Origin: Eledone cirrhosa
Taxonomy: Eukaryota
Length of the DNA stretch: 64,000 nt
Reading direction: 5' to 3'
Assembly (NCBI GenBank): GCA_964016885.1
Contig: OZ024752.1
Span: 7,254,001-7,318,000 of the forward strand
How positions within the stretch are numbered: position 1 is the stretch's first letter; each line of letters begins with the position of its first letter. Below, piece by piece: positions 18,902-63,265 of the stretch. The position numbers and the translations under genes were made by a program. Under the pieces are notes generated by a model, which searched no databases, was not told where the DNA came from, and saw only the letters and a list, made by a program, of their open reading frames with translations.

Positions 18902-21900
18902 TTAAACCAGCCATATATGGCCAGAATTCTCTCACTTCTTTCTGTTCAAACTGGCTGTAACTGGATGCTCATACTGATGTTAAGGTATTGTTCTCAAAAT
19001 AAATAATATCAAAATCTCATAGATTTTGATATTATGTGGGATAATTATGTGAGGTAAACATTTACTGTGAAAATACAATAGTATATATAGAGTAATGTAA
19101 ATGTTATGTGAGATATTATGTGAGGTAAAGACTTTACTGTGAAAATACAATAGTATATATAGAGTAATGTAAATGTTATGTGAGGTAAAGCCTTTACTGT
19201 GAAAATACAATAGTATATATAGAGTAATGTAAATGTTATGTGATATTATGTGAGGTAAAGCCTTTACCAAGAAAATACAATAGTATATATAGAGTAATGT
19301 AAATGTTATGTGAGATATTATGTGAGGTAAAGCCTTTACTGTGAAAATACAATAGTATATATAGAGTAATGTAAATGTTATGCAAGATATTATGTGAGGT
19401 AAAGCCTTTACTATGAAAATATAATAGTATATATATAGAGTAATGTAAATGTTATATGAGACATTATGTGAGGTAAGACCTTTACTGTGAAAATACAATA
19501 GTATATATAGAGTAATGTAAATGTTATGTGAGATATTATGTGAGGTAAAGTCTTTACTGTGAAAATACAATAGTATATATATAGAGTAATGTAAATGTTA
19601 TGTGAGGTAAAGCCTTTACTGTGAAAATACAATAGTATATATAGAGTAATGTAAATGTTATGTGATATTATGTGAGGTAAAGCCTTTACCATGAAAATAC
19701 AATAGTATATATAGAGTAATGTAAATGTTATGTGAGATATTATGTGAGGTAAAGCCTTTACTGTGAAAATACAATAGTATATATAGAGTAATATAAATGT
19801 TATGTGAGATATTATGTGAGGTAAAGTCTTTACTGTGAAAATACAATAGTATATATAGAGTAATGTAAATGTTATGTGAGGTAAAGCCTTTACTGTGAAA
19901 ATACAATAGTATATATAGAGTAATGTAAATGTTATGCAAGATATTATGTGAGGTAAAGCCTTTACTATGAAAATATAATAGTATATATATAGAGTAATGT
20001 AAATGTTATATGAGACATTATGTGAGGTAAGACCTTTACTGTAAAAATACAATAGTATATATAGAGTAATGTAAATGTTATGTGAGATATTATGTGAGGT
20101 AAAGTCTTTACTGTGAAAATACAATAGTATATATATAGAGTAATGTAAATGTTATATGAGATATTATGTGAGGTAAAGCCTTTACTGTGAAAATACAATA
20201 GTATATATAGAGTAATGTAAATGTTATGTGAGGTAAAGCCTTTACTGTGAAAATACAATAGTATATATAGAGTAATGTAAATGTTATGTGATATTATGTG
20301 AGGTAAAGCCTTTAGTATGAAAATATAATAGTATATATAGAGTAATGTAAATGTTATATGAGATATTATGTGAGGTAAAGCCTTTACTGTGAAAATACAA
20401 TAGTATATATAGAGTAATGTAAATGTTATGTGATATTATGTGAGGTAAAGCCTTTAGTATGAAAATATAATAGTATATATAGAGTAATGTAAATGTTATA
20501 TGAGATATTATGTGAGGTAAAGCCTTTACTGTGAAAATACAATAGTATATATAGAGTAATGTAAATGTTATATGAGATATTATGAGAGGTAAAGCCTTTA
20601 CTCTGAAAATACAATAGTATATATAGAGTAATGTAAATGTTATGTAAAATATTATGTGAGGTAAAGCCTTTAGTATGAAAATACAATAGTATATATAGAG
20701 TAATGTAAATGTTATGCAAGATATTATGTGAGGTAAAGCCTTTACTATGAAAATATAATAGTATATATATAGAGTAATGTAAATGTTATATGAGACATTA
20801 TGTGAGGTAAGACCTTTACTGTGAAAATACAATAGTATATATAGAGTAATGTAAATGTTATGTGAGATATTATGTGAGGTAAAGTCTTTACTGTGAAAAT
20901 ACAATAGTATATATATAGAGTAATGTAAATGTTATGTGAGGTAAAGCCTTTACTGTGAAAATACAATAGTATATATAGAGTAATGTAAATGTTATGTGAT
21001 ATTATGTGAGGTAAAGCCTTTACCATGAAAATACAATAGTATATATAGAGTAATGTAAATGTTATGTGAGATATTATGTGAGGTAAAGCCTTTACTGTGA
21101 AAATACAATAGTATATATAGAGTAATATAAATGTTATGTGAGATATTATGTGAGGTAAAGTTTTACTGTGAAAATACAATAGTATATATAGAGTAATGTA
21201 AATGTTATGTGAGGTAAAGCCTTTACTGTGAAAATACAATAGTATATATAGAGTAATGTAAATGTTATGCAAGATATTATGTGAGGTAAAGCCTTTACTA
21301 TGAAAATATAATAGTATATATATAGAGTAATGTAAATGTTATATGAGACATTATGTGAGGTAAGACCTTTACTGTGAAAATACAATAGTATATATAGAGT
21401 AATGTAAATGTTATGTGAGATATTATGTGAGGTAAAGTCTTTACTGTGAAAATACAATAGTATATATATAGAGTAATGTAAATGTTATATGAGATATTAT
21501 GTGAGGTAAAGCCTTTACTGTGAAAATACAATAGTATATATAGAGTAATGTAAATGTTATGTGAGGTAAAGCCTTTACTGTGAAAATACAATAGTATATA
21601 TAGAGTAATGTAAATGTTATGTGATATTATGTGAGGTAAAGCCTTTAGTATGAAAATATAATAGTATATATAGAGTAATGTAAATGTTATATGAGATATT
21701 ATGTGAGGTAAAGCCTTTACTGTGAAAATACAATAGTATATATAGAGTAATGTAAATGTTTTGTGATATTATGTGAGGTAAAGCCTTTAGTATGAAAATA
21801 TAATAGTATATATAGAGTAATGTAAATGTTATATGAGATATTATGTGAGGTAAAGCCTTTACTGTGAAAATACAATAGTATATATAGAGTAATGTAAATG

Positions 21901-22110
21901 TTATATGAGATATTATGAGAGGTAAAGCCTTTACTGTGAAAATACAATAGTATATATAGAGTAATGTAAATGTTATGTAAAATATTATGTGAGGTAAAGC
22001 CTTTAGTATGAAAATATAATAGTATATATAGAGTAATGTAAATGTTATATGAGATATTATGTGAGGTAAAGCCTTTACTGTGAAAATACAATAGTATATA
22101 TAGAGTAATG
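18902..22110 (+). repeat. MITE copy C with a roughly 55-unit array of the 60-bp satellite (47/58/60/62-bp variants)
   Basis: MITE left body 18902-19030, then TTATGTGAGGTAAAGCCTTTACTGTGAAAATACAATAGTATATATAGAGTAATGTAAATG units; right end cut by a SINE. Confidence 0.9.
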
Positions 22111-26759: not shown

Positions 26760-27695
26760 GGGGGGGGGTCTGTGTGCATGTGTGTATGTAAAAGGTAAAC
26801 AGAAATAAGAACACAATCGCTACAGTATATGGAAGGTATATATTAGGTTAACGCTTGATGTAGCAGGAAGAGGGTCTTAACGTTTCGGACGCTAGTCCTT
26901 CATCAGTAGAAAGAATGAGAAATAAGATAGATTGAGGGGATGAGCGGGGTGGAATTGTGTATATATATGTATGTATATAACTATATATTGTTATACTTTG
27001 GTAGGGTCATGCTACCAATAAAAACATACACACCAGTTGAGTTTCACTTCAGTTTATTATACATAGACTTAATGTATATTGTGAAGGTACGTTGCTTAGT
27101 GGTTAGAGGTATTTAATTCCCAATCAGAAGGTTGTGAGTTCAACTCCTGCCAGTGTGTTGTGTCTTTGACGAAGCCACTTCATGTTGCTCTGGTCCTCTC
27201 AGATGGTAAGAAGTGAGTTCTACCTCTGATTTAAAGGGCTACCATTGTCATACAGTGTTATGTTGGATCTCCCTGAGAATTACATTAAAGATATACATGT
27301 CTGTGGAATACTCAGCCACTTGTAAAGTAATTTCACAAACAGGCTGTTTCTTTGATCATACAACTAAAACAATCAACAGAGATGCAACAGAAAAGTTTAA
27401 TATCGGAACGCATACTCTTTTATTCTGAATCACACTGTGTTAGTACTGTGACTTGACTAAACAAAAATATTAGATATGGTGTGGTTTAGTTGATTCTATA
27501 TTTCCCCTATAAATTGATGGCCCTCTGCCAATATATGGAATCAATATTTGGCAGACTTCATGAGGAATTTATTCCAAACTTCATTTCCATTTCTAGAAGA
27601 ACAAAGAGAAGGATACTTGCAGATAACCTCTGGCATTGTTCATATAAAATACAGCACAACAGATCAGATTGATTGATCCTCCCTCAGTTTCAGTG

Positions 27696-33385: not shown

Positions 33386-34124
33386 TGCACACACACATGT
33401 ATACACATACAAATACATACACAAGCACACACACACACATACACATACAAATACATACACATGCACACACACACATATACACATACAAATACATACACAT
33501 GCACACACACATGTATACACATACAAATACATACACAAGCACACACACACACATACACATACAAATACATACACATGCACACACACACATATACACATAC
33601 AAATACATACACATGCACACACACCTGCACATATACACATACAAATACATACACATGCACACACACCTGCACATATGTACATATGATACTTATATATACA
33701 CACAAATACATACACGTGCACACACACACACAGATACAGATATACTAACATCTCCATATACACACACAAATAGATATATACACATGCACACACGCATACA
33801 CATGCGCACACACACACACACACACACACAGAAATAGACAAATAGATACACACACATCCATATACATACACACAAATACACACACACTCATACACATATA
33901 GACACACACACACATCTTCCCACTAAAGATTATCCCCCGTGTCTCCAGATTATTCCAGAAGAAGGAAACGAGATAAAAACCAGAGAATCTCTGGAAATCC
34001 AAATCTCTGGAAATAATCCAATATTTTCCTCCATTAAAACCTAAAATATTTCCGTTTCTCTCCAATTATTGATTTTATTCAATTTCTCTCGGATGAAAGC
34101 TGTCAATATTATTGGAGAGCTTCT

Positions 34125-34961: not shown

Positions 34962-36973
34962 TTAACCCTTTACCATTTACATTACTCTATATATACTATT
35001 GTATTTTCACAGTAAAGGCTTTATCTTGCATAATATCTTACATAACATTTATATTACTCTATATATACTATTGTATTTTCACAGTAAAGGCTTTACCTCA
35101 CATAATATCTCACATAACATTTATATTACTCTATATATACTATCGTATTTTCACAGTAAAGGCTTTACCTCACATAATATCTCACATAACATTTACATTA
35201 CTCTATATATACTATTGTATTTTCACAGTAAAGGCTTTACCTCACATAATATCTCACATAACATTTACATTACTCTATATATACTATTGTATTTTCACAG
35301 TAAAGGCTTTACCTTACATAATATCTTACATAACATTTATATTACTCTATATATACTATTGTATTTTCACAGTAAAGGCTTTACCTCACATAATATCTCA
35401 CATAACATTTACATTACTCTATATATACTATTGTATTTTCACAGTAAAGGCTTTACCTCACATAATATCTCACATAACATTTACATTACTCTATATATAC
35501 TATTGTATTTTCACAGTAAAGGCTTTATCTTACATAATATCTTACATAACATTTATATTACTCTATATATACTATTGTATTTTCACAGTAAAGGCTTTAC
35601 CTCACATAATATCTCACATAACATTTATATTACTCTATATATACTATTGTATTTCCACAGTAAAGGCTTTATCTTACATAATATCTTACATAACATTCAT
35701 ATTACTCTATATATACTATTGTATTTTCACAGTAAAGGCTTTACCTCACATAATATCTCACATAACATTTATATTACTCTATATATACTATCGTATTTTC
35801 ACAGTAAAGGCTTTACCTCACATAATATCTCACATAACATTTACATTACTCTATATATACTATTGTATTTTCACAGTAAAGGCTTTACCTCACATAATAT
35901 CTCACATAACATTTACATTACTCTATATATACTATTGTATTTTCACAGTAAAGGCTTTACCTCACATAATATCTCACATAACATTTACATTACTCTATAT
36001 ATACTATTCTATTTTCACAGTAAAGGCTTTACCTCACATAATATCTCACATAACATTTACATTACTCTATATATACTATTGTATTTTCACAGTAAAGGCT
36101 TTACCTCACATAATATCTCACATAACATTTACATTACTCTATATATACTATTGTATTTTCACAGTAAAGGCTTTACCTCACATAATATCTCACATAACAT
36201 TTACATTACTCTATATATACTATTGTATTTTCACAGTAAAGGCTTTACTTCACATAATATCTCACATAACATTTACATTACTCTATATATACTATTGTAT
36301 TTTCACAGTAAAGGCTTTACCTCACATAATATCTCACATAACATTTACATTACTCTATATATACTATTCTATTTTCACAGTAAAGGCTTTACCTCACATA
36401 ATATCTCACATAACATTTACATTACTCTATATATACTATTGTATTTTCACAGTAAAGGCTTTACCTCACATAATATCTCACATAACATTTACATTACTCT
36501 ATATATACTATTGTATTTTCACAGTAAAGGCTTTACCTCACATAATATCTCACATAACATTTACATTACTCTATATATACTATTGTATTTTCACAGTAAA
36601 GGCTTTATCTTGCATAATATCTTACATAACATTTATATTACTCTATATATACTATTCTATTTTCACAGTAAAGGCTTTACCTCACATAATATCTCACATA
36701 ACATTTACATTACTCTATATATACTATTGTATTTTCACAGTAAAGGCTTTACCTCACATAATATCTCACATAACATTTACATTACTCTATATATACTATT
36801 GTATTTTCACAGTAAAGGCTTTATCTTACATAATATCTTACATAACATTTATATTACTCTATATATACTATTCTATTTTCACAGTAAAGGCTTTACCTCA
36901 CATAATATCGAATCTATGAGAGTTAGATATTATTTATTTTGAGAACAATACCTTAACATAAGTATGAGTGGCC
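34962..36973 (-). repeat. MITE copy D with about 32 units of the 60-bp satellite
   Basis: TTAACCCTTTACCATTT terminus at 34962, strict 60-bp period, MITE body at 36900-36973. Confidence 0.9.
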
Positions 36974-39273: not shown

Positions 39274-39413
39274 CTGCCTTAGTGGTTGTTATATTAGTTG
39301 ACCTTGTCCAGAATGAGGTAAATCCGTGAGCACCCAAACATCTGGCTAGAACCAGCAAAATCACGTGTTTCTCCATGACCCCCTCTTCCGCTTCCGCCAA
39401 ACCATGACGTCAT
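39274..39413 (-). promoter_or_regulatory. Candidate promoter and first exon of a second, unidentified minus-strand gene
   Basis: Local CpG cluster with CRE TGACGTCA (about 39405-39412), tandem ETS-like CGGAAGCGGAAG and E-box CACGTG. A gtcATGG start at 39376 opens MEKHVILLVLARCLGAHG... and ends at a CAG|gtgtgt donor at 39274. Confidence 0.35.
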
Positions 39414-39677
39414 TTATTTGAAATATTTCTGCTCTGCTACCCTCGTAGTCCTCAACAACATTTAGAAGAATATTTCGATTGTCTTGTATCTTTACTTGCT
39501 GAAGTACTTTAAGTGTGTATTGAGCTTGTCTCATTTCTCACCTTACCAAAAGTAATAGTGGAATATTCCATTATAATCACTTATATCACGGTGTGTGATT
39601 TGAGGGAGACTTGGCTGCTACTTCTAACATTTTCCTATATATTTTTATATTGTATGGCTGCTTTTTTCTGGTACCTA

Positions 39678-41704: not shown

Positions 41705-42175
41705 ACACCTGGGCCTTCTATGTGAGATCTCAGGTGAGCCTACGTCATAGTTACACCTGGGCCTTCTATATGAGATCTCAGGTGAGCCTACGTCACAGTT
41801 ACACCTGGGCCATCTATGTGAGATCTCAGGTGAGCCTACGTCACAGTTACACCTGGGCCATCTATGTGAGATCTCAGGTGAGCCTACATCACAGTTACAC
41901 CTAGGCCATCTATGTGAGATCTCAGGTGAGCCTACGTCACAGTTACACCTGGGCCATCTATGTGAGCCTACGTCACAGTTACACCTGGGCCTTCTATGTG
42001 AGATCTCAGGTGAGCCTACATCACAGTTACACCTGGGCCATCTATGTGAGATCTCAGGTGAGCCTACGTCACAGTTACACCTGGGCCATCTATGTGAGAT
42101 CTCAGGTGAGCCTACGTCACAGTTACACCTGGGCCTTCTATGTGAGATCTCAGGTGAGCCTACGTCACAGTTACA
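41705..42175. repeat. 48-bp minisatellite, about 10 copies
   Basis: ACACCTGGGCCATCTATGTGAGATCTCAGGTGAGCCTACGTCACAGTT. Confidence 0.95.
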
Positions 42176-42979: not shown

Positions 42980-44647
42980 GTTTAGACAGAACTTTCTCTC
43001 GTGAATTCAAAAGGTTGCGTCTAATATCAGGGTTACATTTACTGCAGCACACAAATGAAAATATGTATTCACAACAAAATCAATGTAATTAAATACAAAG
43101 TTTAATTTCTTCTTAATGAACATATTTTACAACAAAATTAAATTATCTAAACCAGTGGACATGGTCAACAATGTTTTCTAGAACTGACCATTATACACTA
43201 AATCTGTTGTGGATGGCTTTAAATCAACCTAAGAAACAATGAATCTAAAAACTTCCTCGCATATTTTTGTTCTGGTTGTAAAAATAATGTATGGTCCCGT
43301 AACTCCTGATGGAGTGGCATACAGTGTTTCTAGGGCATTTTAAAACCTGGCTGATCCTGTCATCTTCAGGCCTGAATACAGCAGATTTCTTCCAGAGAAG
43401 GATAGAAGGTGAGAGAGGAAATAAGAAAGAACTAGAGAGGAAGAATCTACCCCAGTATTAGACTGGTACTTTTTTATTGACCTCGAAAGGATGAAAGGCA
43501 AAGTTGACCTCAGCGGGATTCGAACTCAGGGAGTAGAGTGCCAGAACAAATACTATAAAGCATTCTATCTGATGTTCTAACGACGCTACCAATTCACCGC
43601 CAGTGAAAAGAATAACTGAAGACAAAAGAAATGACTTCTTATTTCAAAAAATTGTGTAGATGTCATCGTGTTAGAGGTTGTATTGAGTGAGGGGTGTTAA
43701 GTAACGGACAGAGTCATGTAAACCAGGGTCTGAACAAACATACATTAGTTCACTCCAACACAAAAGTAAGACATTGAGAAATAAGTGTGTATGATCTGTA
43801 AAGAATAAAACAAGAAAATATTACAAGTTTAAGGTTAGAATGAGCAGCCATTTACAATGCCAAGATGGCATCTAAAAAAAGACATATCTTTATTATAGTC
43901 TGTTTTGCTGAAGCTGTTTACATTTATCTAAAAACCTTCCATCATAATTTTATGTAAGAACCTTTGTTAAGTTATGTTCCAAACATCAGCTTAACAAGAA
44001 AGTCAGTTATATCGTTAAATCCTTCCAAATTCTTGATTATTTTTTTAATGATTTGAAAATCACAGGCAGTGTCTTTCATAAGAAATACAGTAACAAAAGG
44101 GGTCAGGGTTTATATTTATCTAATAACCTTCCCTCATAATTTTATTTAAAAACCTTTGTTAAGTTATGTTCCAAACAAGATTATTAACAAGAAAGTTACA
44201 TATATTACTAAATGACTCCAAATTCTTGATTACTTTTCAAAATGATTTGAAAATCACAGGCAGTGTCTTTCATTAAAAATATGGTAATGAACAGTTTAGT
44301 CTAAGATGTTTGGAAAATTTCAGTTGGTAATTCATGAAATGGCATTATTTTCCATACCTTGGAACATTTTTCGAAACAACCAATATATATATATATATAT
44401 ATCAGACCTCACAACTCTCCCTGTCTAGTGGGGAGATTTGCAATAGCGTTTGGGGTGAGTGAGAGATGCTTCTCTTGTGAAAATGGTGTATAGCCTTCAT
44501 TATGTAAAAATCTTCCCATTTTGCCTCATTTCTTCCCATTTTGGGGCATTTTTTTTTCATAGTATTCCCCGTTTGGATTTTTAGAGGTTGGCAGGTCTGT
44601 ATATATATATATATATATATATTTATTATACTATATTATATATATAT

Positions 44648-46393: not shown

Positions 46394-46549
46394 TCATTGT
46401 GCCAATATTGCACTAGGACAGGTATTCAGGTGAGATGAGGGGTCGTTGATAGGTAAGCTGGCATCACCGCTCAGATCTGTTGTTGGAGATGGAACTAATG
46501 GTGAAGTTTTTGATAACCGTACAACTTCTTGTGACAAAGTCTCCAGATC
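46394..46549 (-). CDS. GRIPAP1: GRIPAP1 last coding exon ([14 protein letters not shown]...SAILAQ*)
   Basis: ttttccag|GAT...TGA; 156 nt including the stop codon. Confidence 0.92.
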   Translation of the reverse strand, partial: DLETLSQEVVRLSKTSPLVPSPTTDLSGDASLPINDPSSHLNTCPSAILAQ

Positions 46550-49500
46550 CTGGAAAATAACAATAACAACAAATAAAAATAGCAATAACAAATAAAGGGA
46601 TAAGTTGTAGGATGCGGGAGAGAAGACTGCGATGGTATGGACATGTGATGTGCATGGAGGATGACGTCTGGGTTAAGAAGTGCCAAGAAATCCCGGTGGA
46701 AGGAAGACGTGCTAGAGGAAGACCACGAAAACATGGGCGGAGGTGGTGGTGAAAGTGAAACTGTGTCTGAGAGGGATGAACTGTAGTGTGTGGGAGAGAA
46801 GACTGCAATGGTATGGACATGTGATGTGCATGGAGGATGACCACTGGGTTAAGTGCCAAAAAATCCCGGTGGAAGGAAGACGTGGTAGAGGAAGACTACG
46901 AAAAACATGGGCGGAGGTGGTGAGAGCTGACCTCAGATTGCTGAAACTCAAGGAGGAGATGACAAAGGACCGTGACAAGTGGAGAGATGCTGTGCTGTAT
47001 AAGACCCGTCCCACCCTTGCAAGCAGGGAAAAGTGGACGTAAAATGATGATGATGAAAAATGGTTTCTTATATAGGCACAAGGCCAGCAATTTTGGGGGA
47101 GGGAAAATCGATTAAATCAACCCCAGTGTATTACTGGTACTTTATTTTATTGACCCCGTAAGGATGAAAGGCAAAGTTAACGTTGGCCAGATTTGAACTC
47201 AGAACATAAAGGGCCTAATGCTATACCGTAAAGCATGTTGGTCGACGCTCTACCAATTCTGACAACAATAACGGTTTCTAATTTAGACACAAGGCCAATG
47301 ATTGAGGGGGGGGGATTAAATTGACCCAAGTACATTACTGGTACTTTATTTTATTGACCCTGTAAGGATGAAAGGCAAAGTTAACCTCGGCGAGTTTTAA
47401 ACTCAGAAAGTAAAGGGCCGTAACTCTACCTAATATTGATGATGAGATGATGATGATTACATTGATGATTATGACAATAATGATGATGGTGAATGACTTA
47501 TAAGCCCTGGGTTTGATCTAATCTTCTAAATAGGTAAAGATGGTGCCCCAGCATGGACTCAGTCTATACACCTGTAACACAGTACAATACACCTGAAGCT
47601 AATTATCTCACCTTTTGGAGGTGCCCCAGTATGGCCCAAGTCTATACACCTGTAACACAGTACAATACACCTGAAGCTAATTATCTCACCTTTTGGAGGT
47701 GCCCCAGTATGGCCCCAGTCTATACAGCTGTAACAGTACAATACACCTGAAGCTAATTATCTCACCTTTTGGAGGTGCCCCAGTATGGCCCAAGTCTATA
47801 CACCTGTAACACAGTACAATACACCTGAAGCTAATTATCTCACCTTTTGGAGGTGCCCCAGTATGGCCCAAGTCTATACACCTGTAACACAGTACAATAC
47901 ACCTGAAGCTAATTATCTCACCTTTTGGAGGTGCCCCAGTATGGCCCAAGTCTATACACCTGTAACACAGTACAATACACCTGAAGCTAATTATCTCACC
48001 TTTTGGAGGTGCCCCAGTATGGCCCAAGTCTATACACCTGTAACACAGTACAATACACCTGAAGCTAATTATCTCACCTTTTGGAGGTGCCCCAGTATGG
48101 CCCAAGTCTATACACCTGTAACACAGTACAATACACCTGAAGCTAATTATCTCACCTTTTGGAGGTGCCCCAGTATGGCCCAAGTCTATACACCTGTAAC
48201 ACAGTACAATACACCTGAAGCTAATTATCTCACCTTTTGGAGGTGCCCCAGTATGGCCCAAGTCTATACACCTGTAACACAGTACAATACACCTGAAGCT
48301 AATTATCTCACCTTTTGGAGGTGCCCCAGTATGGCCCAAGTCTATACACCTGTAACACAGTACAATACACCTGAAGCTAATTATCTCACCTTTTGGAGGT
48401 GCCCCAGTATGGCCCAAGTCTATACACCTGTAACACAGTACAATACACCTGAAGCTAATTATCTCACCTTTTGGAGGTGCCCCAGTATGGCCCAAGTCTA
48501 TACACCTGTAACACAGTACAATACACCTGAAGCTAATTATCTCACCTTTTGGAGGTGCCCCAGTATGGCCCAAGTCTATACACCTGTAACACAGTACAAT
48601 ACACCTGAAGCTAATTATCTCACCTTTTGGAGGTGCCCCAGTATGGCCCAAGTCTATACACCTGTAACACAGTACAATACACCTGAAGCTAATTATCTCA
48701 CCTTTTGGAGGTGCCCCAGTATGGCCCAAGTCTATACACCTGTAACACAGTACAATACACCTGAAGCTAATTATCTCACCTTTTGGAGGTGCATGTTCTT
48801 GGTAAGGGTTTCCTCCAGCATCCTCTGTAATTTACGGTTCATCTCCTTCATGTTCACGTCACCACGGTTCACCAATTCCAGAACTTTCTTCAGTGAAGAT
48901 TTCTCTTCGTTTGACTTATTGTGGCTCGTTAAACAATCTGTTGTGGAATAGAGGTACATAGTAGTATAGGTGGTGGTAGTGTTGGTGGTGGTGGTGGTGG
49001 TGGTGGCGGTGGTAGTGGTGGCGGTGGTAGTGGTGGTAGTGTTGTTGGTGGTGGTGGTGGTGTAGTGGAATAGAAGTACATAGTAGTATAGGTGGTGGTG
49101 GAACAGAGGTACATAGTAGTATAGGTGGTGGTAGTGTTGGTGGTGGTGGTGGTGGTGGTAGTGTTGGTGGTGGTGGTAGTGTCGGTGGTGGTGGTGGTGG
49201 TGGTAGTGTAGTGGAATAGAGATGCATAGTAGTATAGGTGGTGGTGGTGGTGGTGGTGGCAGTGTTGGTGGTAGTGTTGGTGGTAGTGGTGGTGGTAGTG
49301 GTGGTAGTGTTGGTGGTGTTGGTGGTGGTGGTGGTAGTGTAGTGGAATAGAGGTACATAGTAGTATAGGTGGTGGTGATGGTAGTGGTGGTGGTAGTGTT
49401 GGTAGTGGTGGTGGTAGTGTTGGTGGTGGTGGTGGTAGTGTTGGTCGTAGTGGTGGTAGTGGTGGTGGTAGTGGTAGCAGTGGTGGTAGTGGTGGTGGTG

Positions 49501-52500
49501 GTGTAGTGGAATAGAGGTACATAGTAGTATAGGTGGTGGTGGTAGTGGTGGTAGTGTTGGTGGTGGTGGTGGTAGTGTTGGTGGTAGTGGTGGTGGTGGT
49601 AGTGGTGGTAGTGTTGGTGGTGGCGGTGGTAGTGTTGTTGGTGGTGGTGGTGGTGTAGTGGAATAGAAGTACATAGTAGTATAGGTGGTGGTGGAACAGA
49701 GGTACATAGTAGTATAGGTGGTGGTGGTGGTGTAGTGGAATAGAGGTACATAGTAGTATAGGTGGTGCGGGGGGGGGGGGTAGTGGAATAGAGGTACATA
49801 GTAATGGTGGTGGTGTAGTGGAATATAGGTACATAGTAGTATAGGTGGTGGTGGTGGTGGTGTAGTGGAATAGAGGTAGATAGTAGTATAGGTGGTGGTG
49901 GTGGTGGTGGTGTGGTAGTGGTGGTGGTGTGGTAGTGGTAGTGTTGGTGGTGGTAGTGTAGTGGAATAGAAGTACATAGTAGTATAGGTGGTAGTAGTGG
50001 TGGTGGTGGTAGTAGTATCTGTCACACAACAGTTACAGAGATAGCTGTCAAAACTTATGCATGTTTATTACATATAAACATTGTATATGACTCCATTGTG
50101 TGTGAATGTGTGTGGTGTGTGTGTGTATGTATGTATGTGTGGTGTGTCTGTACACATGCGTTTGTGTTTATTATTTATTTAAGACTTGACTTAGCAGCTG
50201 ATAAAATAAATTCTAGCCTTGGTGGGGTCAATAAGATCAAATGAATCCCTTCAGGATAGTGCCCCAGCATGGCCACAGTCATGTGAGAGAATTAAAAAAG
50301 AATATTTGCTCACCTGTTCGGCCATCCATCACATAATACTCAATAATAGCAGATTTTTGTAAAAGATCGTCACACATGGCAGCATTGCTCTCCTCAAGAT
50401 GTTGAACCTACAAAGGTAAAAATAAATTTTGGAGTTGAACATGTCTGGCAGATGACTTGATCTGAGATCATGTGTTGAAACTATAGTAATTACATCATGG
50501 AAGAGTCATTTGAGCCACAGTTGTACATGTCTGGCAGATGACTTGATCTGAGATCATGTGTTGAAACTATAGTAATTACATCATGGAAGAGTCATTTGAG
50601 CCACAGTTGTACATGTCTGGCAGATGACTTGATCTGAGATCATGTGTTGAAACTAAGATAATTACATCATAGAAGGGACAGTGTCCAAACATTTGACTGA
50701 CCTTTTCTTCCAATGTCCACTTCTGTTGTTGGGAGGTAGCAAGACGGTTGACCAACTCATTATGTTCGGACTCAAAATCACTTGGTGGACTTCCAGCTCT
50801 GTTGGGAGACTGAAACACAGAAACATTAACATGTCTTAACTGATAACACTGTCACATATATAACAGTAACATGTCTTAACTGATAACACTGTCACACATA
50901 ACATTATCATGTCTTAACTGATAACACTGTCACATATAACATTATCATGTCTTAACTGATAACACTGTCACACATATAACATTAACATGTCTTAACTGAT
51001 AACACTGTCACATATAACATTAACATGTCTTAACTGATAACACTGTCACACATAACAGTAACATGTCTTAACTGATAACACTGTCACATATATAACAGTA
51101 ACATCTCTTAACTGATAACACTGTCACACATATAATATTAACATGTCTTAACTGATAACACTGTCACACATATAACATTAACATGTCTTAACTGATAACA
51201 CTGTCACATATAACAGTAACATGTCTTAACTGATAACACTGTCACACATATAACAGTAACATGTCTTAACTGATAACACCGTCACACAGTAACATTATCA
51301 TGTCTTAACTGTTAACATTGATAATAATGTCACGCATAGCAACATTATGTTCTCAACACCACTAACACCAACAACATCACCAACACACCAACAACACCAA
51401 CAACATCACCAACACACCATCAATGAAAACTATTGCCACTACGAACCTGTGGAGAATCTTTGTTTCCAGTGCCACTGGCTCCAGCACTCCAAGAGGACAC
51501 AGAACTACTCTCTGCTTTATCTCCAATATCTGTTGGTTTAAATAAATCATCAACACCTGCAATAGAAGATTATATTATTTCAAGATAAAGAGAAATGATA
51601 TAGGGAACTTGTAGGATTCAGGAGTACAGGTTTGTCTGGAGCCCAGAGGGTCATCTGGCCTGAGCTTATCCAGGTTTCCATGGTATGAAGTGACAGAGTA
51701 CAAGACTCCCCACTGGACAGGATGCCAGTCCACCACAGGGTTAAACTCTTCAGTGCTGTAGACGAGATAACTTGTCCTAACATGTTTTAACTTGTTTCCA
51801 ATAGTTCACAACTTCAAAGTTATGAACTCGTTTCCAACAGTTCATAACTTCACAACTAGATGGCGTTACTAGTTTATTGATGTGATGTTTGTCAATCATT
51901 CAGATATGTGTTGTTAATAAATGTTTGTTTAAAAAAATAGTCACATTACTGAAAGAAAAAAAAAACCAGCACAGCAACTGTAGCTGTGTAAAATATACAT
52001 GGCAGTCAACACAGCAACTGTAGCTGTGTAAAATATACACGGCAGTCAACACTGCAACTGTAGCTGTGTAAAATATACATGGCAGTCAACATAGCAACTG
52101 TAGCTGTGTAAAATATACACGTCAGTCAACACAGCAACTGTAGCTGTGTAAAATATGCACAGCTACAGCAACTGTAGCTGTGTAAAATATGCACAGCAGT
52201 CAACACAGCAACTGCAGCTGTGTAAAATATGCACAGCAGTCAACACAGCAACTGTAGCTGTGTAAAATATGCACAGCAGTCAACACAGCAACTGTAGCTG
52301 TGTAAAATATGCACAGCAGTCAACACAGCAACTGTAGCTGTGTAAAATATGCACAGCAGTCAACACAGCAACTGTAGCTGTGTAAAATATGCACAGCAGT
52401 CAACACAGCAACTGTAGCTGTGTAAAATATACATGGCAGTCAACACAGCAACTGTAGCTGTGTAAAATATACATGGCAGTCAACACAGCAACTGCAGCTG

Positions 52501-55341
52501 TGTAAAATATGCACAGCAGTCAACACAGCAACTGTAGATGTGTAAAATATACATAGCAGTCAACAGATTAAATCACCAGATATTACTGGTACTCATTTTC
52601 AGCTGAAATAGAGTGTTTTGCTCAAGAACACAACACACAACCCAGTCCAGGGATTGAACCCCATCGTGTTCGTATGTCCAACACCCTTACCACGAGGCCA
52701 TCCACCTCCACTTTAAATTTTACAGTCTTTTTAAATAACAAAGATTGCAAATACCTGTTGCTAACAATTGTTTACAAATGGTATTTGATATATCAACAAT
52801 GTTTTCTAAGCATTGTGTTCTTTGACATTGTTTAATGACATGACAAGTTTAACATTCTAGTGAAATATGTGGGAGGAAGATTTTGATGGATGACATGATA
52901 CATACTACTGAGAAACCTTTAGGTGACTCTGATCATGCTATGATACATTTACATAGACATGTTGGTCAGCTACAGGATAAAAACATGTAGTCATCATCAT
53001 CATCATCATCGTTTAACGTCTATCTTCCACGCTAGCATGGTTTAGACGGGAATTGTCCCACTTGAGGCAAGATTGGTCGGATGACCTTGTCTCGCTCGTA
53101 TAGGACTGTCTGGCAGGTTTTCTATAGCTGGATGCCCTTCCTAACACCAATCACATTTACAGTGTGGACTGGGAACTTTTTACTGTGTTACCTACACGGC
53201 CACATTACAGCGTGAACTGTGTTTTTTTGTCATGACACCTACATAACCTCATTAGTTTGGACTGGATGTTGTGGTACCAACATAACTTTACAGAAAGGGG
53301 TGGTGTTGGTGGGACTGGGAGGATAGAGTAGGGGTAGTGGGTTGGGTTAAGAGGTGCCTACTGACTGTAGGTTTCGCTTTGCACATAGGCAAGGCGTAGT
53401 ACATGCTGTAAAATAGTTGTAAAGGGCTTCCCGCCATCGACAGCTTACCAAACAAGGGTTTAGAAGGACCCTTCAGTTTGTGTCAAAAGACATAACTTCC
53501 CCTCTGCACATAATAGAATGTATGACCATACATAAGCGAGATGTGGAGCTATGTAGACTTGTCCAACTCTTGCTAACAACGAATGTATTCTAAGGTGATA
53601 TTATACACAAAGATGTATTCTATTCTCCTTTTACCTTTAGTTTCAGAAAGGGGGGGTCACATTATACATAAATGCAGTAGGTTTAAGGTCACATTATACA
53701 CAAATACAGTAGGTTTAAGGCCACATTATACACAAATGCAGTAGGTTTAAGGGCTAAATTCAAGTTGAACCAGTCACAAGAGGGTCATGGAATGGATTTC
53801 TGTTAGTTACAGCAATATTCCATGTCTGTTAAACAGAAGAGCTTTTCCCATGAAATTTAACATACGAGTGGCTGAGTATTCCACAGATATGTGTGTAATT
53901 AATATAATTCAGATTCAAGGTGTCAGTGTGTGACAAGGGTGGTTTTTCAATTACAGATAGTCTTTATTGTATTATAGTGTCAGACCTGTTAGAAATAGCA
54001 ACTAAATTCTTCTCAACCAGTTACTTTCCTCCTTCCTCAACACATGACCAAACCATCTCATTGTCATCACCCAGTTACTTTCATCCTTCCTCAACACATG
54101 ACCAAACCATCTCATTGTCATCACCCAGTTACTTTCATCCTTCCTCAACACATGACCAAACCATCTCATTGTCATCACCCAGTTACTTTCCTCCTTCCTC
54201 AACACATGACCGAACCATCCAATTGTCATCACTCAGTCACTTTCATCCTTCCTCACCACATGACCCAACCATCTCATTAATACCAATTAACCAATAATTA
54301 CCATAATGAGGTTATCTTACCTTGTCTATTTTTAGGGTCCGTCAATAATTCCTGCAAGCGCTCCTGGAGTTTCTCAGCTCTCTTCCTCTCAGTATGGAGT
54401 TGTCGTTTCAAATCTTTCAACTGAAACCAGAGATTATATTGCGTCTTTATAATGAGAGATTGTCAGGGTCACCGCTCATGGAGGAGAGCTCACCACTGCT
54501 GGAGGAGAGCTCACCACTGCTGGAGGAGAGCTCACCACTGCTGGAGGAGAGCTCACCACTCGTGGGGGAGAGCTCAGCACTCGTGGGGGGAGGAGCTCAG
54601 CACTCGTGGGGGGGGGGGGGGGGGGGGGGCTCACCACTCGTGAGGGAGAGCTCACCACTCGTGGGGGAGAGCTCACCACTCGTGGGGGAGAGCTCACCAC
54701 TCGTGGGGGAGAGCTCACCACTCGTGGGGGAGAGCTCACCACTCGTGGAGGAGCGCTCACCACTCATGAAGGAGCGCTCACCACTCATGAAGGAGAGCTC
54801 ACCACTCATGGGGGAGAGCTCACCACTCATGGGGGAGAGCTCACCACTCATGGGGGAGAGCTCATCACTCATGGGGGAGAGCTCACCACTCATGGGGGAG
54901 AGCTCACCACTCATGGGGGAGAGCTCACCACTCATGGGGGAGAGCTCACCACTCATGGGGGGGAGCTCACCACTCATGGGGGAGAGCTCAACGCTCATGG
55001 GGGAGAGCTCAACGCTCATGGAGGAGAGCTCAACGCTCATGGAGGAGAGCTCACCACTCATGGAGGAGAGCTCACCACTCATGGAGGAGAGCTCACCACT
55101 CATGGAGGAGAGCTCACCACTCATGGAGGAGAGCTCACCACTCATGGAGGAGAGCTCACCACTCATGGAGGAGAGCTCACCACTCATGGGGAAGATGTTA
55201 GACAGAGAGAGATAAATACAAAATAAAGAGAGATAATTGTTTCTACTGTAGGCACAAGGCCAGCAATTTTAGGGGAGGGGAAAGTCGATTAAATCAACCC
55301 ATGTATTACTGGTATTTTATTTTATCGACCCCCGTAAGGAT

Positions 55342-55372
<31 letters not shown>

Positions 55373-58303
55373 ATTAAGAGAGAGAGAGAGAGAGATTAAC
55401 AGACAGACAGACAGATACATCTGTATTTGACTTCCATTGGTTCTGACAGCACCGTTTCATCTACCTCCCTACTTCATTTAATCCAAAGTTCTTGTCAGTC
55501 ACAACTCCTGTTTGAAAGTGGTGAGGTTTGACCTCCCAACCTCCAGATCCAGAACTAAACCTACATCAATTAATCCAATCTTCCAACTACTCTGTCCATT
55601 CACCATCTTTCTTTTCAAAGAACTGAATCTTTAGAAATAAAATACTTACCATAGTTAATCCTTTCTTCTCATGGATTTTCTTTTCATCAACGCTGTCTTT
55701 AATCTCCTGAAATAAAATAAAATAAAAACTGAGGTAAATAATTATCCTTTAATGTCTTATTTTCCAAGTTTGCATGGGTTGGGTAGGTCTTTATGCTGGA
55801 AAGCATTGTCAGACCCTCTACCGATACTGCCAATCCACCACCATATATCATATACAGAGTCCCAGGCCCATCTAGAGGGACAGTAACTGACTAATTACTG
55901 ACCTGGTCAGTATCAACCTGTCCAACTCATGTCAGCATGGAAGACTAGACAACATTAAATGATTCTGAAAACAAAGGTAACAATACTAAAATGAGGTTTA
56001 CCTGTTGTAATTTTTCTACAGATTCATCACGTTGAGCTATTTCAGCCCTCAATTCCACCTCGAGCTGTTTGTAACCCTGGAGGAAAGAAATTTAAGATAA
56101 CATAAATAAATCCTTCCATTATTAACCCTTTAAATGCCAACAATTATGTTTTTAAATAACTGATATATTAGGTTGTGTACAAACTCTCTCCTTTATATAA
56201 CCCTTTAGCATTTAAACCAGCCATATCCGGCCAGAATTCTCTCACCTCTTTCTGTTCAAACCGGCCATAACCGGCCACTCATACTGATATTAAGGTATTG
56301 TTCTAAATAATACCAAAATCTCATAGATTCGATACTATGTGAGATAATAAAAGTCTTTACCATGAAAATACAATAGTATATATAGAGTAATGTAAATGGT
56401 ATGCGAGATATTATGTGAGGTAAAGCCTTTACTGTGAAAATACAATAGTATATATAGAGTAATGTAAATGTTATGTGAGATATTATGTGAGGTAAAGCCT
56501 TTACTGTGAAAATACAATAGTATATATAGTATATATAGTAGATGTTATGTGAGATATTATGTAAGGTAAAGTCTTTACTGTGACAATACAATAGTATATA
56601 TAGAGTAATGTAAATATTATGTGAGATATTATGAGAGGTAAAGCCTTTACTGTGAAAATACAATAGTATATATAGAGTAATGTAAATGTTATGTGAGGTA
56701 TTATGTGAGGTAAAGCCTTTACTGTGAAAATACAATGGTATATATAGAGTAATGTAAATGCTATGTGAGATATGAGGTAAAGCCTTTACTGTGAAAATAC
56801 AATAGTATATATAGTATATATAGTAGATGTTATGTGAGATATGAGGTAAAGCCTTTACTGTGAAAATACAATAGTATATATAGAGTAATGTAAAGGGTTA
56901 AGGGTTAAGCCCGCCAGATGTTGAATAATGTAGTGCTATATACACTATATATCTATCTTTATGTCTGAAAATAGATGGTAGGCAGATCAAGGATAGAACG
57001 GTCTTTAATCATAAGCTTGCTTGACCAAGCTGACCTTGGGCTAAATAACAACAATCAGCAACTACTATACAACACATCTGTAATATCCACAGAAAATATC
57101 AGTTTCATGTCGTGATTCCAAGGAGATAAGAGAGATAATATACTTTAAACTTTTTATTATATTTCTAATGAAAGACACGGTCTTTGCTTTTAATACAATT
57201 TTGAAAATAATCAATTATTTGGAGTATTTAATAATATAAGTAACGCTCTCATTAGTGTTTGGAATACAGCATAAAACTATGCTGGAAGGTTTTTAGGTAC
57301 CGTATTTCCCGGGCCTCGAGGACACACGCTAATTTTGACAACCAAAAATTTGAAAAGAAAATAACAATCTTTGGCCTCCAGGACCCATGGTAGATTTTTG
57401 AGACTCATTTTAGGAAAAAGTAGCGTCTTCGACACCGGGAAATACAGTATTTTTAACCCGTTAAAACAAACAGTTTTATATAATAAAACAGGGGGGGGGG
57501 GGGGGGTATCAAAAGGGTTAAAGTGTGGGGAAGAAATCAAGTATTATTTATTCTATCCATAAAACAATCAGTTATGTAGTGTAGAGATGTAACTAAGGAA
57601 AATAGTGCATGTGGCAAGCTGTGAAATTGTGACCCTACCCAAATATTAGACCCTATTAAAATATTTGACAAATCACACTAAGAGGTAAGCCTATGCCATG
57701 TAGTTCCCAGCAACTCTGGGCTTAATAATTTATATAAATGGCTTAATGATCCAGCCACCACAGTGTTCTCACCCATGATAGAGACAGATCATACATCTGA
57801 AGAAGTCTCTTTTTTCCCCTCTGACGACAGCTTATCTGACTTTAATAGAAAGTGTTCCTAATCCCAGTGGTGCCCCCGACTTCAAGTAGCACCCATGGCA
57901 TGTGCCATGTTTGCCATACCCTAGTTACACCTCCGACTGTACTTAGCAGAAATATTAGATGAACCAATACCTCAAGATCTTGTTGAAATTTTTCTAACAT
58001 TTCATCTTTTTCCTGTTGGTATTTTTCTTGGGTCTCCAAAAGTGTTGATTCAAAGTCCTGCTTGTTAACCTTCAAATTGGTCTATAACAGAAAATGAAAC
58101 ATTATCATCATTTTAAGTTTGTTTTTCAGGCTAGTATGGGTTGGACAGAGTATCACAGTCTGAGACAAGATGGAACAAACCAGTAATCCACTCTGGATGT
58201 TTGCAACAGAGTGGATTCTGCTAAAAGCACCCAAGGGTCTGGTGGTGGTGGTGGTGGTGGTGGTGGTAGTATTTAAGCCTGGCAACAGATTAAGTCTACT
58301 TCC

Positions 58304-59243: not shown

Positions 59244-61078
59244 TACACAATATATTAACAAATGGAAACTATATTTATAAAACCATATTTATTTTATTAT
59301 ACATATTTCAAGAGCCACCAAGGTAAATTATGGTGCGCTTTCATCAGATAAAATACAATACAGATTAGTTTTATAAATAAATATTGACTTACCCTGAAAA
59401 AACTATCCAGGAAGCTCCAACTGTTAAGGTTGTCTTTTTTCAGGGTATGTCAATATTTATTTATAAAACTAATCTGTATTGTATTTTATCTGATGAAAGC
59501 GCACCATAATTTGCCTTGGTGGCCCTTGAAATATGTATAATGAAATAAATATGGTTTTATAAATATAGTTTCCATTTGTTAATATATTGTATATTTACTC
59601 CAATAATCTGTTGAGTGCTTTATATCAGTTATAAAAATATTTTTAAGCTTGTTGTATCCCAACAAATTAAATATAACCTCTAGATATATATATATATGGA
59701 AAATGAAGAATCGAAACACAATTTATTAACGTATTAAAAGCGTTTCTCCGCCGAACAGCTCGAGGTAGGATCTATTTGTAGATCAAACCTGACTCTGCAT
59801 TCACAAGTTCCTCAGATATGTCTAGTGACTTGAAAGCAAATCCTCTGCTCTAATTTGCAGTAGTAAAGCTCTGTCATAGCATGAAACATAAGGGTGTATA
59901 TTGAAACATAACACCACCACCCCACCACCACCACCACCGCAGCCATCAACACCCCACCACCAAACAACAATAAAGTAACCCACCTCAGCATCATTGAGTC
60001 TCCGCTGTAGCCAACCTTTAGTTTCTTCAGAAGAAACCAACTTGGTTTGAACCTTCTCAACCAACGACCGCAGTTTCTTCAACTCCGAACAATTTTCCTG
60101 AAGAATCAAATAAGAAATTGTCTTAAATAAACATTATATAACAGTAAAGACACATGGTCCAGTGGTGAGGGTCTGTCATGGTCCAGTGGTGAGGGTCTGT
60201 CATGGTCCAGTGGTGAGGGTCTGTCATGGTCCAGTGGTGAGGGTCTGTCATGGTCTAGTGGTGAGGGTCTGTCATGGTCTAGTGGTGAGGGTCTGTCATG
60301 GTCCAGTGGTGAGGGTCTGTCAAGATCTAGTGGTGAGGGTCTGTCATGATCTAGTGGTGAGGGTCTGTCATGGTCCAGTGGTGAGGGTCTGTCATGGTCT
60401 AGTGGTGAGAGTCTGTCATGGTCCAGTGGTGAGGGTCTGTCATGGTCCAGTGGTGAGGGTCTGTCAAGATCTAGTGGTGAGGGTCTGTCATGGCCCAGTG
60501 GTGAGGGTCTGTCATGGCCCAGTGGTGAGGGTCTGTCATGGTCTAGCGGTGAGGGTCTGTCATGGTCTAGCGGTGAGGGTCACACAGTCATGGTCTAGTG
60601 GTGAGGGTCTCACAATGAAATAGCTGTGGAATCAAGGAGAGACCCTGAAATAACAAACATACTTGTTCTTGGCACAGTAAGTCTTCAAGTTTCTGAAGTT
60701 CTGCTGTGTGGTCATGGTTCATCTGTTGTACCAATTCTCGGTGAGAATCACATTCTTTCTGGTATTTTATTGCCATTTCATCTATAAGACGTTTCCGTTT
60801 CTCGGCTACCTGCTCAGATAAACATTACATGTGTTACATATATATATATTTAAACAATTTTGAAAACCATACAAGGCACTAGAAAGAAAATTTAAATTGC
60901 TAAGTCATAGGGATGGTACCTTGATAAGGGGTTTTTAAACCCAAAAATATTTGAGATTATTAAATTTGCTAAGGTAATATTCTTTTGTTATCTTAGCAAT
61001 TTAAATTGTGTATGGTTTTTAAAATTATTTAAATTTGTGTTGCCTATTCAACAATGCTTCAAGCAAACTACAACACTG

Positions 61079-61949: not shown

Positions 61950-63265
61950 ATAATAATAAATTTGAAGACTAAAATCCAAAGAGGGCTCGATAAGGATAAA
62001 TATATATCAAATATATAAGAACCGTTATTTTAATAAATATATATATATATGAAGATGGTGGTGGTGATGGTGATGATGATGATGGTGGTGGTGGTGATGG
62101 TGATGATGATGGTGGTGGTGATGGTAAAGATGATGGTGGTGGTGATGATGATGGTGGTAGTGGTGGTGATGATGATGATGGTGGATGGTGATGATGGTGG
62201 TGATAATGATGGTGGTGATAATGATGGTGGTGGTGGTGGTGGTGTATGCTATAAAAGACTTGCAATAGAGAACCAAACAAGTAAGAGGAGATCTTACCGA
62301 ACTGATTTCCTGTAAAGATTGTATTTGTGTATCCCGTTCCTGTTGTGCAGCGTAAAGTTGTTCGAGGGTGTGTTCACTGGCACGGTGACCTTCCTGGACA
62401 GGGGAATTAGAGAGCAGGAACAATGTCAAGGTCATATATATATATATTGGAAGATCACAAACATTGTCAAGGTCATATATATTGGAAGGTCAGACATATT
62501 GGAAAGTCAGAAATATTGACAAGGTCATATATATTATAAGGTCATTCAGTTTGAAACATTTGTCAAGGTCATATATATTGGAAGGTCAGAGACATTGACA
62601 AGGTCATATATATTGAAAGGTCAAAAACAATGTCATGGTCATATATTGGAAAGTCATCCAGTTTGAAACCTTTGAACTCAGAACGTAAAGGGCCATAACT
62701 ATGTGGCAAAGCATGGTGTCTGCCAATGCAGCCTATAATGGAAGTATAGTTACCAGAAGTTGTACTTTAAAGTCATCAAACTGCTGAGAATGGAGGGCCA
62801 ATTGTTTCTCTAGAACATTGATCTGCTGTTTGTACTCCTGCTCAACTTCATTGCGTTGTTGGTTGTTAACAATACTGGTAGCATCCACCTGTGGAGGAGG
62901 GGGGGAGAACAGTGTTAATACTGGTAGTATCACATGGTGGGGGGGGGGGGGGGCATTAGTGTTAATACTGGTAGTATCACATGGTGGGGGGAGACAGTGT
63001 TAATACTGGTAGTATCACATGGTGGGGGGGGACATTAGTGTTAATACTGGTAGTATCACGTGGTGGGGGTAGTATCCACATGTGGGAGGAGGGAGTGGTA
63101 CTATCCACATGTGGGGGGAGGGGCGTGGTAGTATCCACATGTGGTGGGGGAAATTTGAAATGTTCCAAAAATGGCCAAAGTTCTTACCATTTGCTGTAAG
63201 GCTATGTTTTGCTCCTCCAATTCCTTGATTTTAGAATACGAACAATTTTGAGAATCATCCAACAT
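46394..63265 (-). CDS. GRIPAP1: GRIP1-associated protein 1 (GRASP-1) orthologue, 3' portion; 14 coding exons in the window, 5' end beyond the window
   Basis: Manual splicing of 14 GT-AG exons gives one uninterrupted 508-aa coiled-coil ORF. I recognise GRIPAP1 motifs from memory: [52 protein letters not shown]...[51 protein letters not shown]. No BLAST was run. Confidence 0.93.
46597..47055 (+). mobile_element. RTE 3' fragment with an internally duplicated C-terminal segment, antisense in the last GRIPAP1 intron
   Basis: [16 protein letters not shown]...[10 protein letters not shown] occurs twice (46597-46750 and 46757-47055); tail matches 6870-6930. Confidence 0.88.
47542..48792. repeat. 78-bp minisatellite, 16 copies, overlapping a GRIPAP1 exon/intron junction
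   Basis: Period 78 (one 76-bp unit); each unit contains GCACCTCCAAAAG|GTGAGATAA on the minus strand. Confidence 0.97.
48780..48937 (-). CDS. GRIPAP1: GRIPAP1 penultimate exon ([53 protein letters not shown])
   Basis: ccacaacag|AT...AAG|gtgaga; 158 nt, phase 1/0. Confidence 0.93.
48940..50018. repeat. Compound (GGT/AGT)n repeat with about 13 copies of a 30-bp motif
   Basis: GTGGAATAGAGGTACATAGTAGTATAGGTG separated by variable trinucleotide runs. Confidence 0.9.
50314..50407 (-). CDS. GRIPAP1: GRIPAP1 exon ([31 protein letters not shown])
   Basis: ctttgtag|GTT...ACAG|gtgagc; 94 nt, phase 0/1. Confidence 0.93.
50439..50675. repeat. 86-bp tandem repeat, about 2.7 copies, intronic
   Basis: Units start at 50439, 50525 and 50611. 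Confidence 0.9.
50702..50809 (-). CDS. GRIPAP1: GRIPAP1 exon ([36 protein letters not shown])
   Basis: gtgtttcag|TCT...AAG|gtcagt; 108 nt, phase 0/0. Confidence 0.92.
50822..51318. repeat. 35-41-bp minisatellite, about 13 copies, intronic
   Basis: TAACATTAACATGTCTTAACTGATAACACTGTCACACA. Confidence 0.92.
51447..51556 (-). CDS. GRIPAP1: GRIPAP1 exon ([37 protein letters not shown])
   Basis: tattgcag|GT...CAG|gttcgt; 110 nt, phase 1/0; Ser-rich linker that restores the frame. Confidence 0.87.
51970..52565. repeat. 40-bp minisatellite, about 15 copies, intronic
   Basis: CACAGCAACTGTAGCTGTGTAAAATATGCACAGCAGTCAA. Confidence 0.95.
54016..54277. repeat. 54-bp repeat, about 5 copies, RTE-derived
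   Basis: Minus strand translates as ([18 protein letters not shown])n. Confidence 0.88.
54321..54420 (-). CDS. GRIPAP1: GRIPAP1 exon ([33 protein letters not shown])
   Basis: gtttcag|TTG...CAAG|gtaaga; 100 nt, phase 0/1; strongly conserved motif. Confidence 0.93.
54469..55191. repeat. 21-bp minisatellite, about 34 copies, intronic
   Basis: GGAGAGCTCACCACTCATGG(G/A), with variants in ordered blocks. Confidence 0.95.
55650..55706 (-). CDS. GRIPAP1: GRIPAP1 exon ([19 protein letters not shown])
   Basis: tatttcag|GAG...ATG|gtaagt; 57 nt, phase 0/0. Confidence 0.9.
56002..56076 (-). CDS. GRIPAP1: GRIPAP1 exon ([25 protein letters not shown])
   Basis: ttcctccag|GGT...CAG|gtaaac; 75 nt, phase 0/0. 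Confidence 0.85.
56197..56908 (+). mobile_element. MITE copy E with about 9-10 satellite units, in a GRIPAP1 intron
   Basis: ATAA-CCCTTTAGCATT...[units]...AAAGGG-TTAA; both ends present. Confidence 0.85.
57300..57447. mobile_element. Tc2/pogo-like MITE with TA target-site duplication
   Basis: TA-CCGTATTTCCCGG...CCGGGAAATACAG-TA. Confidence 0.7.
57971..58081 (-). CDS. GRIPAP1: GRIPAP1 exon ([37 protein letters not shown])
   Basis: tgttatag|ACC...GAG|gtattg; 111 nt, phase 0/0. Confidence 0.85.
59247..59590. repeat. Fold-back inverted repeat, 156-bp arms with a 32-bp loop
   Basis: 59247-59402 is the reverse complement of 59435-59590 with few mismatches. Confidence 0.92.
59984..60097 (-). CDS. 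GRIPAP1: GRIPAP1 exon ([38 protein letters not shown])
   Basis: ttcttcag|GAA...GAG|gtgggt; 114 nt, phase 0/0. Confidence 0.9.
60153..60610. repeat. 24-bp minisatellite, about 19 copies, intronic
   Basis: CATGGTCCAGTGGTGAGGGTCTGT. Confidence 0.95.
60663..60809 (-). CDS. GRIPAP1: GRIPAP1 exon ([19 protein letters not shown]...LLCQEQ)
   Basis: gagcag|GTA...CAA|gtatgt; 147 nt; carries the conserved AEKRK..DE motif. Confidence 0.9.
61529..61838. repeat. Nested fold-back element
   Basis: Outer arms about 61529-61642 and 61720-61838; inner perfect 18-bp stem CTAATGATTTCGGAGCAA / TTGCTCCGAAATCATTAG. Confidence 0.92.
62298..62393 (-). CDS. GRIPAP1: GRIPAP1 exon ([32 protein letters not shown])
   Basis: ctgtccag|GAA...TCG|gtaaga; 96 nt, phase 0/0. 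Confidence 0.82.
62420..62670. repeat. Degenerate 33-45-bp intronic repeat
   Basis: CAAGGTCATATATATTGGAAGGTCA motif occurs about 6 times. Confidence 0.7.
62766..62888 (-). CDS. GRIPAP1: GRIPAP1 exon ([41 protein letters not shown])
   Basis: cctccacag|GTG...TTTAAA|gtacaa; 123 nt, phase 0/0; donor is weak. Confidence 0.75.
63188..63265 (-). CDS. GRIPAP1: GRIPAP1 exon ([26 protein letters not shown])
   Basis: ctgccag|ATG...CAAATG|gtaaga; 78 nt, phase 0/0. Confidence 0.75.

Follow-up and report, generated by a model that had tools for sequence, protein, structure and literature searches.

Why does a GRIPAP1 exon of the octopod Eledone cirrhosa carry its 5' splice site in 16 tandem copies, and which of them does the cell use? 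The locus lies in a window of 64,000 nt (the whole stretch of DNA that was analysed; GenBank assembly GCA_964016885.1, contig OZ024752.1, positions 7,254,001 to 7,318,000 of the forward strand), and we give positions within that window except where a location elsewhere in the genome is named. A sequence-only reading of this DNA had proposed a copy-number-tunable poison-splicing switch or a U1 decoy array. We conclude, with a probability of roughly 80%, that the array is a minisatellite of an exon-intron boundary that is spliced at its first donor and is likely a neutral by-product of a heavy minisatellite load.

The array occupies the last intron of GRIPAP1, and the gene identity and junction first read from the letters hold. 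The Octopus sinensis GRIP1-associated protein 1 maps exon by exon onto the minus strand, with the last exon ending at the same C-terminal residues, and a spliced contig from run X4 joins the same exons. The exon at the head of the array is 94% identical to the O. sinensis protein and 92% identical to that of Argonauta. The gene features that frame the array are these:

48780 to 48937, minus strand: penultimate GRIPAP1 coding exon, 158 nt, its last 13 nt forming the first part of the array; matched to O. sinensis, with both borders matching the spliced X4 contig.

46394 to 46549, minus strand: last GRIPAP1 coding exon, 51 codons plus stop; placed by O. sinensis mapping and the X4 contig, its acceptor at the 74th percentile.

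48945 to 49987, minus strand: part of the upstream intron in which the 25-nt stretch before the acceptor occurs 12 times, the real one included, among GGT repeats.

Read-through open reading frames of many other animals break at the same residue as the 48780 junction, which is consistent with an old intron position. The last-exon motif occurs in 25 of 57 homologues, a figure that does not measure conservation because many of these rows read through into the intron. A Pfam scan of the GRIPAP1 protein and exon returned no family. On the upstream side, the 11 extra copies of the pre-acceptor stretch lack an AG, and the minus strand holds no other AG in the kilobase before the penultimate exon's acceptor. 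This exon is thus flanked on both sides by junction-derived repeats. Other minisatellites have an end about 60 nt or less from a GRIPAP1 exon and leave the splice site uncrossed (50433 to 51317, 54013 to 55195, 60153 to 60610 and 62440 to 63069); across the surveyed genes, such a pile-up of arrays 50 to 100 nt from exons is general rather than specific to GRIPAP1. The last GRIPAP1 intron also contains LINE-like and SINE-like pieces at 46600 to 47430.

The array reiterates a real exon-intron junction. Tandem Repeats Finder (TRF) reports a period of 78, 16.1 copies and 98% matches, and each unit joins 13 nt of exon end to 65 nt of intron start. The minus strand holds 16 occurrences of a 22-nt motif covering exon end and donor, the first of them at the true junction (48780/48779), so the motif count and TRF both confirm the array as originally described. 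Its parts are as follows:

47542 to 48792, minus strand: 78-bp minisatellite with 16 donor copies, from TRF, motif count and raw-data contigs.

48774 to 48782, minus strand: authentic 5' splice site AAG/GTGAGA, at the 49th percentile of 197 surveyed donors and hence of median strength.

47606 to 48704, minus strand: 15 identical pseudo-donors, with GT at 48701, 48623 and onward to 47765, 47689 and 47611.

47690 to 47765, minus strand: variant 76-nt unit with a 2-nt deletion, two substitutions and an altered acceptor-like AG/GT, from motif and interval comparison.

47542 to 47546, plus strand: GGTGC microhomology at the array's intron-side end.

48788 to 48792, plus strand: GGTGC microhomology at the array's exon-side end.

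Identical 78-mers make up 14 of the 15 donor-to-donor intervals. The remaining one, from 47765, measures 76 nt, so the last two donors fall 2 nt off the 78n ladder. The terminal unit carries four substitutions within its last ~20 nt. The locus therefore has the anatomy of a boundary minisatellite: a first unit spanning the real junction, a donor reiterated 15 further times within the intron, homogenised inner units (14 identical) and a diverged boundary unit. All 16 donors are identical and match six of nine positions of the donor consensus. Predicted folding of the real and a copied donor left both mostly paired, with no clear difference between them. When the exon and first unit were used as a genome query, a single locus matched and no second exon copy appeared.

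The two ends of the array suggest how it began. GGTGC is present at both, as the sequence-only reading had it, and the microhomology origin drawn from it holds as a probable account. The exon and the intron each carry a GCACC word, 78 nt from one another, and slippage or unequal exchange between these words would have duplicated the junction while leaving the exon intact. Later turnover would have homogenised the inner units, with the intron-side end unit staying diverged.

Raw sequencing data contain the array. A 108-nt contig from run X1 covers the unit once around, including the junction, at a depth of 111. Unit depth is 109–112 in X1 and 96–100 in X2, and locus-specific contigs at 47185 to 47351 stand at 8.56 and 7.56; the ratio gives about 13 unit copies relative to single-copy sequence in both runs, each ratio being taken from one single-copy contig and both runs from one sample, possibly the assembled one. 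The exact array length rests on the assembly together with this depth. An assembly artefact or a greatly inflated copy number is almost certainly not the explanation, because short-read contigs in both runs carry the unit-to-unit junction at that depth; the variant and terminal units also have substitutions of their own. What speaks for an artefact is that 14 units are identical to the letter and that no read or contig examined spans the full array.

The major GRIPAP1 message is cut at the first donor. In run X4, which comes from another sample under the same species label and has no recorded library type, one 2812-nt contig of depth 39 covers the upstream exon, 48937–48780 and the last exon without a break. 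One of its loose ends reads as the upstream exon, the other as the first part of the last exon. We take X4 as RNA because this contig is spliced, and because it joins donor 1 to the last exon, the major message must be cut at donor 1. Regular splicing at the authentic site thus persists beside the array, as read from one contig of one run that shows the major form only. A stop-containing isoform is absent from this contig; contigs drop rare forms, and nonsense-mediated decay (NMD) would hide forms of this kind. No X4 contig fell on the repeat unit, an absence given no weight because a filter omits some records, X1's exon contig and X4's last-exon piece among them.

Arrays that copy donors recur in unrelated genes and are rare. 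We surveyed 600 kb over 16 myosin genes with 177 exon matches, together with 23 GRIPAP1 exons, giving 17 genes in all. A profile of 24 myosin heads served to locate the myosin exons; a few of its matches cover profile positions already matched elsewhere. Donors were called heuristically for 197 of the 200 exons; the GRIPAP1 donor under study is one of the three uncalled and lies outside the counts, which describe one gene family plus GRIPAP1. Near-identical downstream copies followed three of the 197 donors, two of them real. The third, C3b, was rejected as a mis-called donor. Among 176 myosin donors, two have clear arrays and two degenerate ones. Reiterated acceptors appeared once among 195 surveyed (C11:43097256).

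C11:46630628 (L044:358-549): clear donor array, 64 bp in three copies, 99% identical; its exon end agrees with O. bimaculoides P0064.

C8:20538409, minus strand: older clear donor array of ~70 bp, in which two of three copies have lost their GT.

C8:48058610, plus strand: degenerate, probable donor array with 28 donor-like copies, 41 bp in 39 copies.

C3:145259696, plus strand: degenerate, probable donor array, 24 bp in 2.4 copies.

C11, ~43096800 to 43097256, plus strand: array of a myosin acceptor and the first ~35 nt of its exon, upstream of the real acceptor.

The C11:46630628 array repeats a myosin-head exon's final ~54 nt plus the donor, and an in-frame stop directly follows that donor. 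The survey also showed open frames of 808–1179 aa around short myosin exons at C18:36.96 Mb, C3:145.27 Mb, C2:18.98 Mb and C11:43.09 Mb. A myosin gene at C27:17.97–18.00 Mb has repeated matches to profile positions 100–132, 116–158 and 613–650, possibly duplicated alternative exons.

Donors are avoided by arrays, not favoured. The share of positions inside arrays rises from ~1% at the donor to ~17% beyond +90, and it is ~17–19% in the deep introns of the 17 genes. Arrays start at 2 of 194 donors, compared with 13 of 150 positions at +50, 14 of 151 at +80 and 15 of 155 at +100 (Fisher p 2e-4 to 7e-4, the offsets being mutually dependent); from +200 to +680 the starts number 2–7 of about 150. 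Donor arrays are therefore a thin tail of a general array load, rarer than arrays just inside the intron. Tandem repeat makes up 53% of the window itself.

The stop codon behind the GRIPAP1 donor is of an ordinary kind. It lies in the first intronic nucleotides and would be read whenever a later donor is used:

48771 to 48779, minus strand: in-frame V-R-stop if any downstream donor is used, by computation.

Use of a downstream donor would insert at least 78 nt and read K-V-R-stop. By computation, 69 nt would separate the end of this stop from the last junction for donor 2, and 1159 nt for donor 16. By this arithmetic the stop falls more than 50–55 nt before a junction, the distance used to recognise splicing coupled to NMD, and it does so as commonly happens by chance. 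Of the 197 surveyed donors, 44 meet an in-frame stop in the first 4 codons and 139 in the first 26 (78 nt), so the GRIPAP1 stop needs no special explanation. The reading K-V-R-stop and its distance from the junction both stand as first proposed; calling this the classical NMD configuration does not carry over as easily, since PMC3315328 describes the 50-nt rule as the mammalian route and invertebrates as said to use 3'-UTR length. Likewise, downstream donors would indeed remove a conserved 14-residue stretch, but that stretch begins the 51-codon last exon rather than forming the protein terminus.

A selected poison-splicing switch or U1 decoy array, with copy number as its dial, is highly improbable at this locus. 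In its favour, every downstream donor would place a stop at least 69 nt before the last junction and remove the conserved residues that open the last exon. Weighing against it are the chance expectation of such a stop, the mammalian provenance of the distance rule and the recurrence of the same arrays in unrelated genes, where they decay with loss of GT and are depleted at donors. The sole spliced contig uses donor 1, and RNA from a downstream donor was not seen in it, rare forms being dropped from such contigs. The intron start of a relative is diverged from the unit: in run X5 the exon matches at 89%, the sequence leaves the unit after 6 intronic nt and continues for 30 letters in a related but diverged form, and the contig stops short of where a second unit would lie.

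The GRIPAP1 array is an ordinary further example of a kind known from human and lancelet genes. The sequence-only reading had also called it a natural test of how one donor is chosen among identical ones, which is a fair description of an experiment already done on human F7 in 2006. In that report (Borensztajn et al. 2006, PMC1557585), F7 intron 7 carries a 37-bp VNTR of 5–9 copies that includes 4 exonic nt, and only the first donor is used in F7, LMNB2 and PDGF. As in F7, the first GRIPAP1 unit bridges exon end and donor, the pseudo-donors behind it are identical and the first donor is the one found in RNA; unlike F7, the GRIPAP1 unit is 78 bp, occurs 16 times, includes 13 exonic nt and belongs to a mollusc. 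The summary in the same source lists PDGF intron 4 (81 bp, 16–18 copies), whose unit length and copy number come close to those of the GRIPAP1 array, and LMNB2 (100 bp, 10–15 copies). Both use only the authentic donor, where the GRIPAP1 contig is also spliced. It further lists human 6-16 with 25 pseudo-sites and CBS intron 13 with 15–20 repeats, in which the next two donors are used as well. Such use was not seen in GRIPAP1, where a low level of it would escape our data.

Amphioxus supplies the invertebrate case. PMC3087553 describes "mirage" minisatellites in Adh3 and the globins BflGb6 and BflGb9, in which regular splicing is undisturbed, boundary units are unhomogenised and length is unstable between haplotypes and somatically. 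The octopod array shares with them tandem copies, on either side, of an exon-intron boundary in an invertebrate, normal splicing, unhomogenised boundary units and recurrence across genes; it differs in phylum. In a literature search that covered few subscription journals, cephalopod arrays of this kind did not come up.

Leaky splicing under no selection is unlikely, although it has precedents. On this account donors 2 and 3, or a predicted pseudo-exon, would be used at a few percent, the products would be decayed or truncated, and longer alleles would give slightly lower GRIPAP1 output. The pseudo-exon is a feature that the sequence-only reading missed:

48624 to 48661, minus strand: potential 38-nt pseudo-exon, shown for unit 2 and predicted once per standard unit, formed by an acceptor-like CAG and then a pseudo-donor.

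The acceptor-like CAG and pseudo-donor could define a frameshifting exon. Among 192 surveyed acceptors, the acceptor-like site of each standard unit ranks at the 35th percentile, and it outscores the penultimate exon's own acceptor (9.5 vs 4.7), which favours leak, as do 16 identical donors of median strength. Human 6-16 and CBS supply the precedent (as summarised in PMC1557585), and the depletion of arrays at donors fits a small cost. Set against these are the X4 contig, unbroken across the junction at depth 39 and free of any such form, and the pseudo-sites of F7, which PMC1557585 describes as silent even when strengthened.

A neutral boundary minisatellite accounts best for these observations. 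The spliceosome would commit to the most upstream donor, as in human F7, under a scanning model of donor choice whose tests were confined to mammalian cells. Only the first donor is preceded by a full exon and acceptor, and the 15 copies would be removed within the intron. A rare slip to a later donor would yield a stop-containing message that is lost or gives a protein without its last 51 residues, and the array would have little or no effect on fitness. We favour this reading because the major form in X4 uses donor 1 and the genome has a single exon copy, and because 53% tandem repeat surrounds the locus and junction arrays recur in unrelated genes. Against it, the 14 identical units could mean recent expansion or selection, and some leak is plausible by analogy with 6-16 and CBS.

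The rest of the window holds further repeats and candidate reading frames. A 48-bp array at 41705 to 42175 (plus strand) has a strong donor-like CAG/GTGAGC in most units; an exon in front of it is not established. One 72-bp satellite family occurs in both orientations at 19032 to 22110, 34974 to 36909 and 56350 to 56894. A reverse-transcriptase frame at 4805 to 5929 (plus strand; Pfam RVT_1, E 1.7e-19), likely a LINE, was the only Pfam match, with no family found among 17 candidate open reading frames from the rest of the window. Exon-like short frames at 17451 to 17666, 27561 to 27683, 33933 to 34040, 39364 to 39537 and 43248 to 43457, all on the minus strand, may belong to a second gene; Pfam matched none of the three that were scanned.

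The base rate carries more than the locus. Taken alone, GRIPAP1 is one more example of a kind described in humans and amphioxus. It is very unlikely that decay masks use of its downstream donors and 38-nt pseudo-exon and that array length thereby sets GRIPAP1 dose; were that so, arrays at ~1–2% of surveyed donors would give octopods thousands of repeat-length splicing dials and ready places for introns to be gained. Of more use is the finding that two clear arrays, and up to four, occur among 176 myosin donors, and that donors are avoided. If this rate held genome-wide, an extrapolation, Eledone cirrhosa would contain thousands of F7-like loci, and long-read RNA that already exists would allow donor choice, leak and intron gain in an invertebrate to be measured in bulk.
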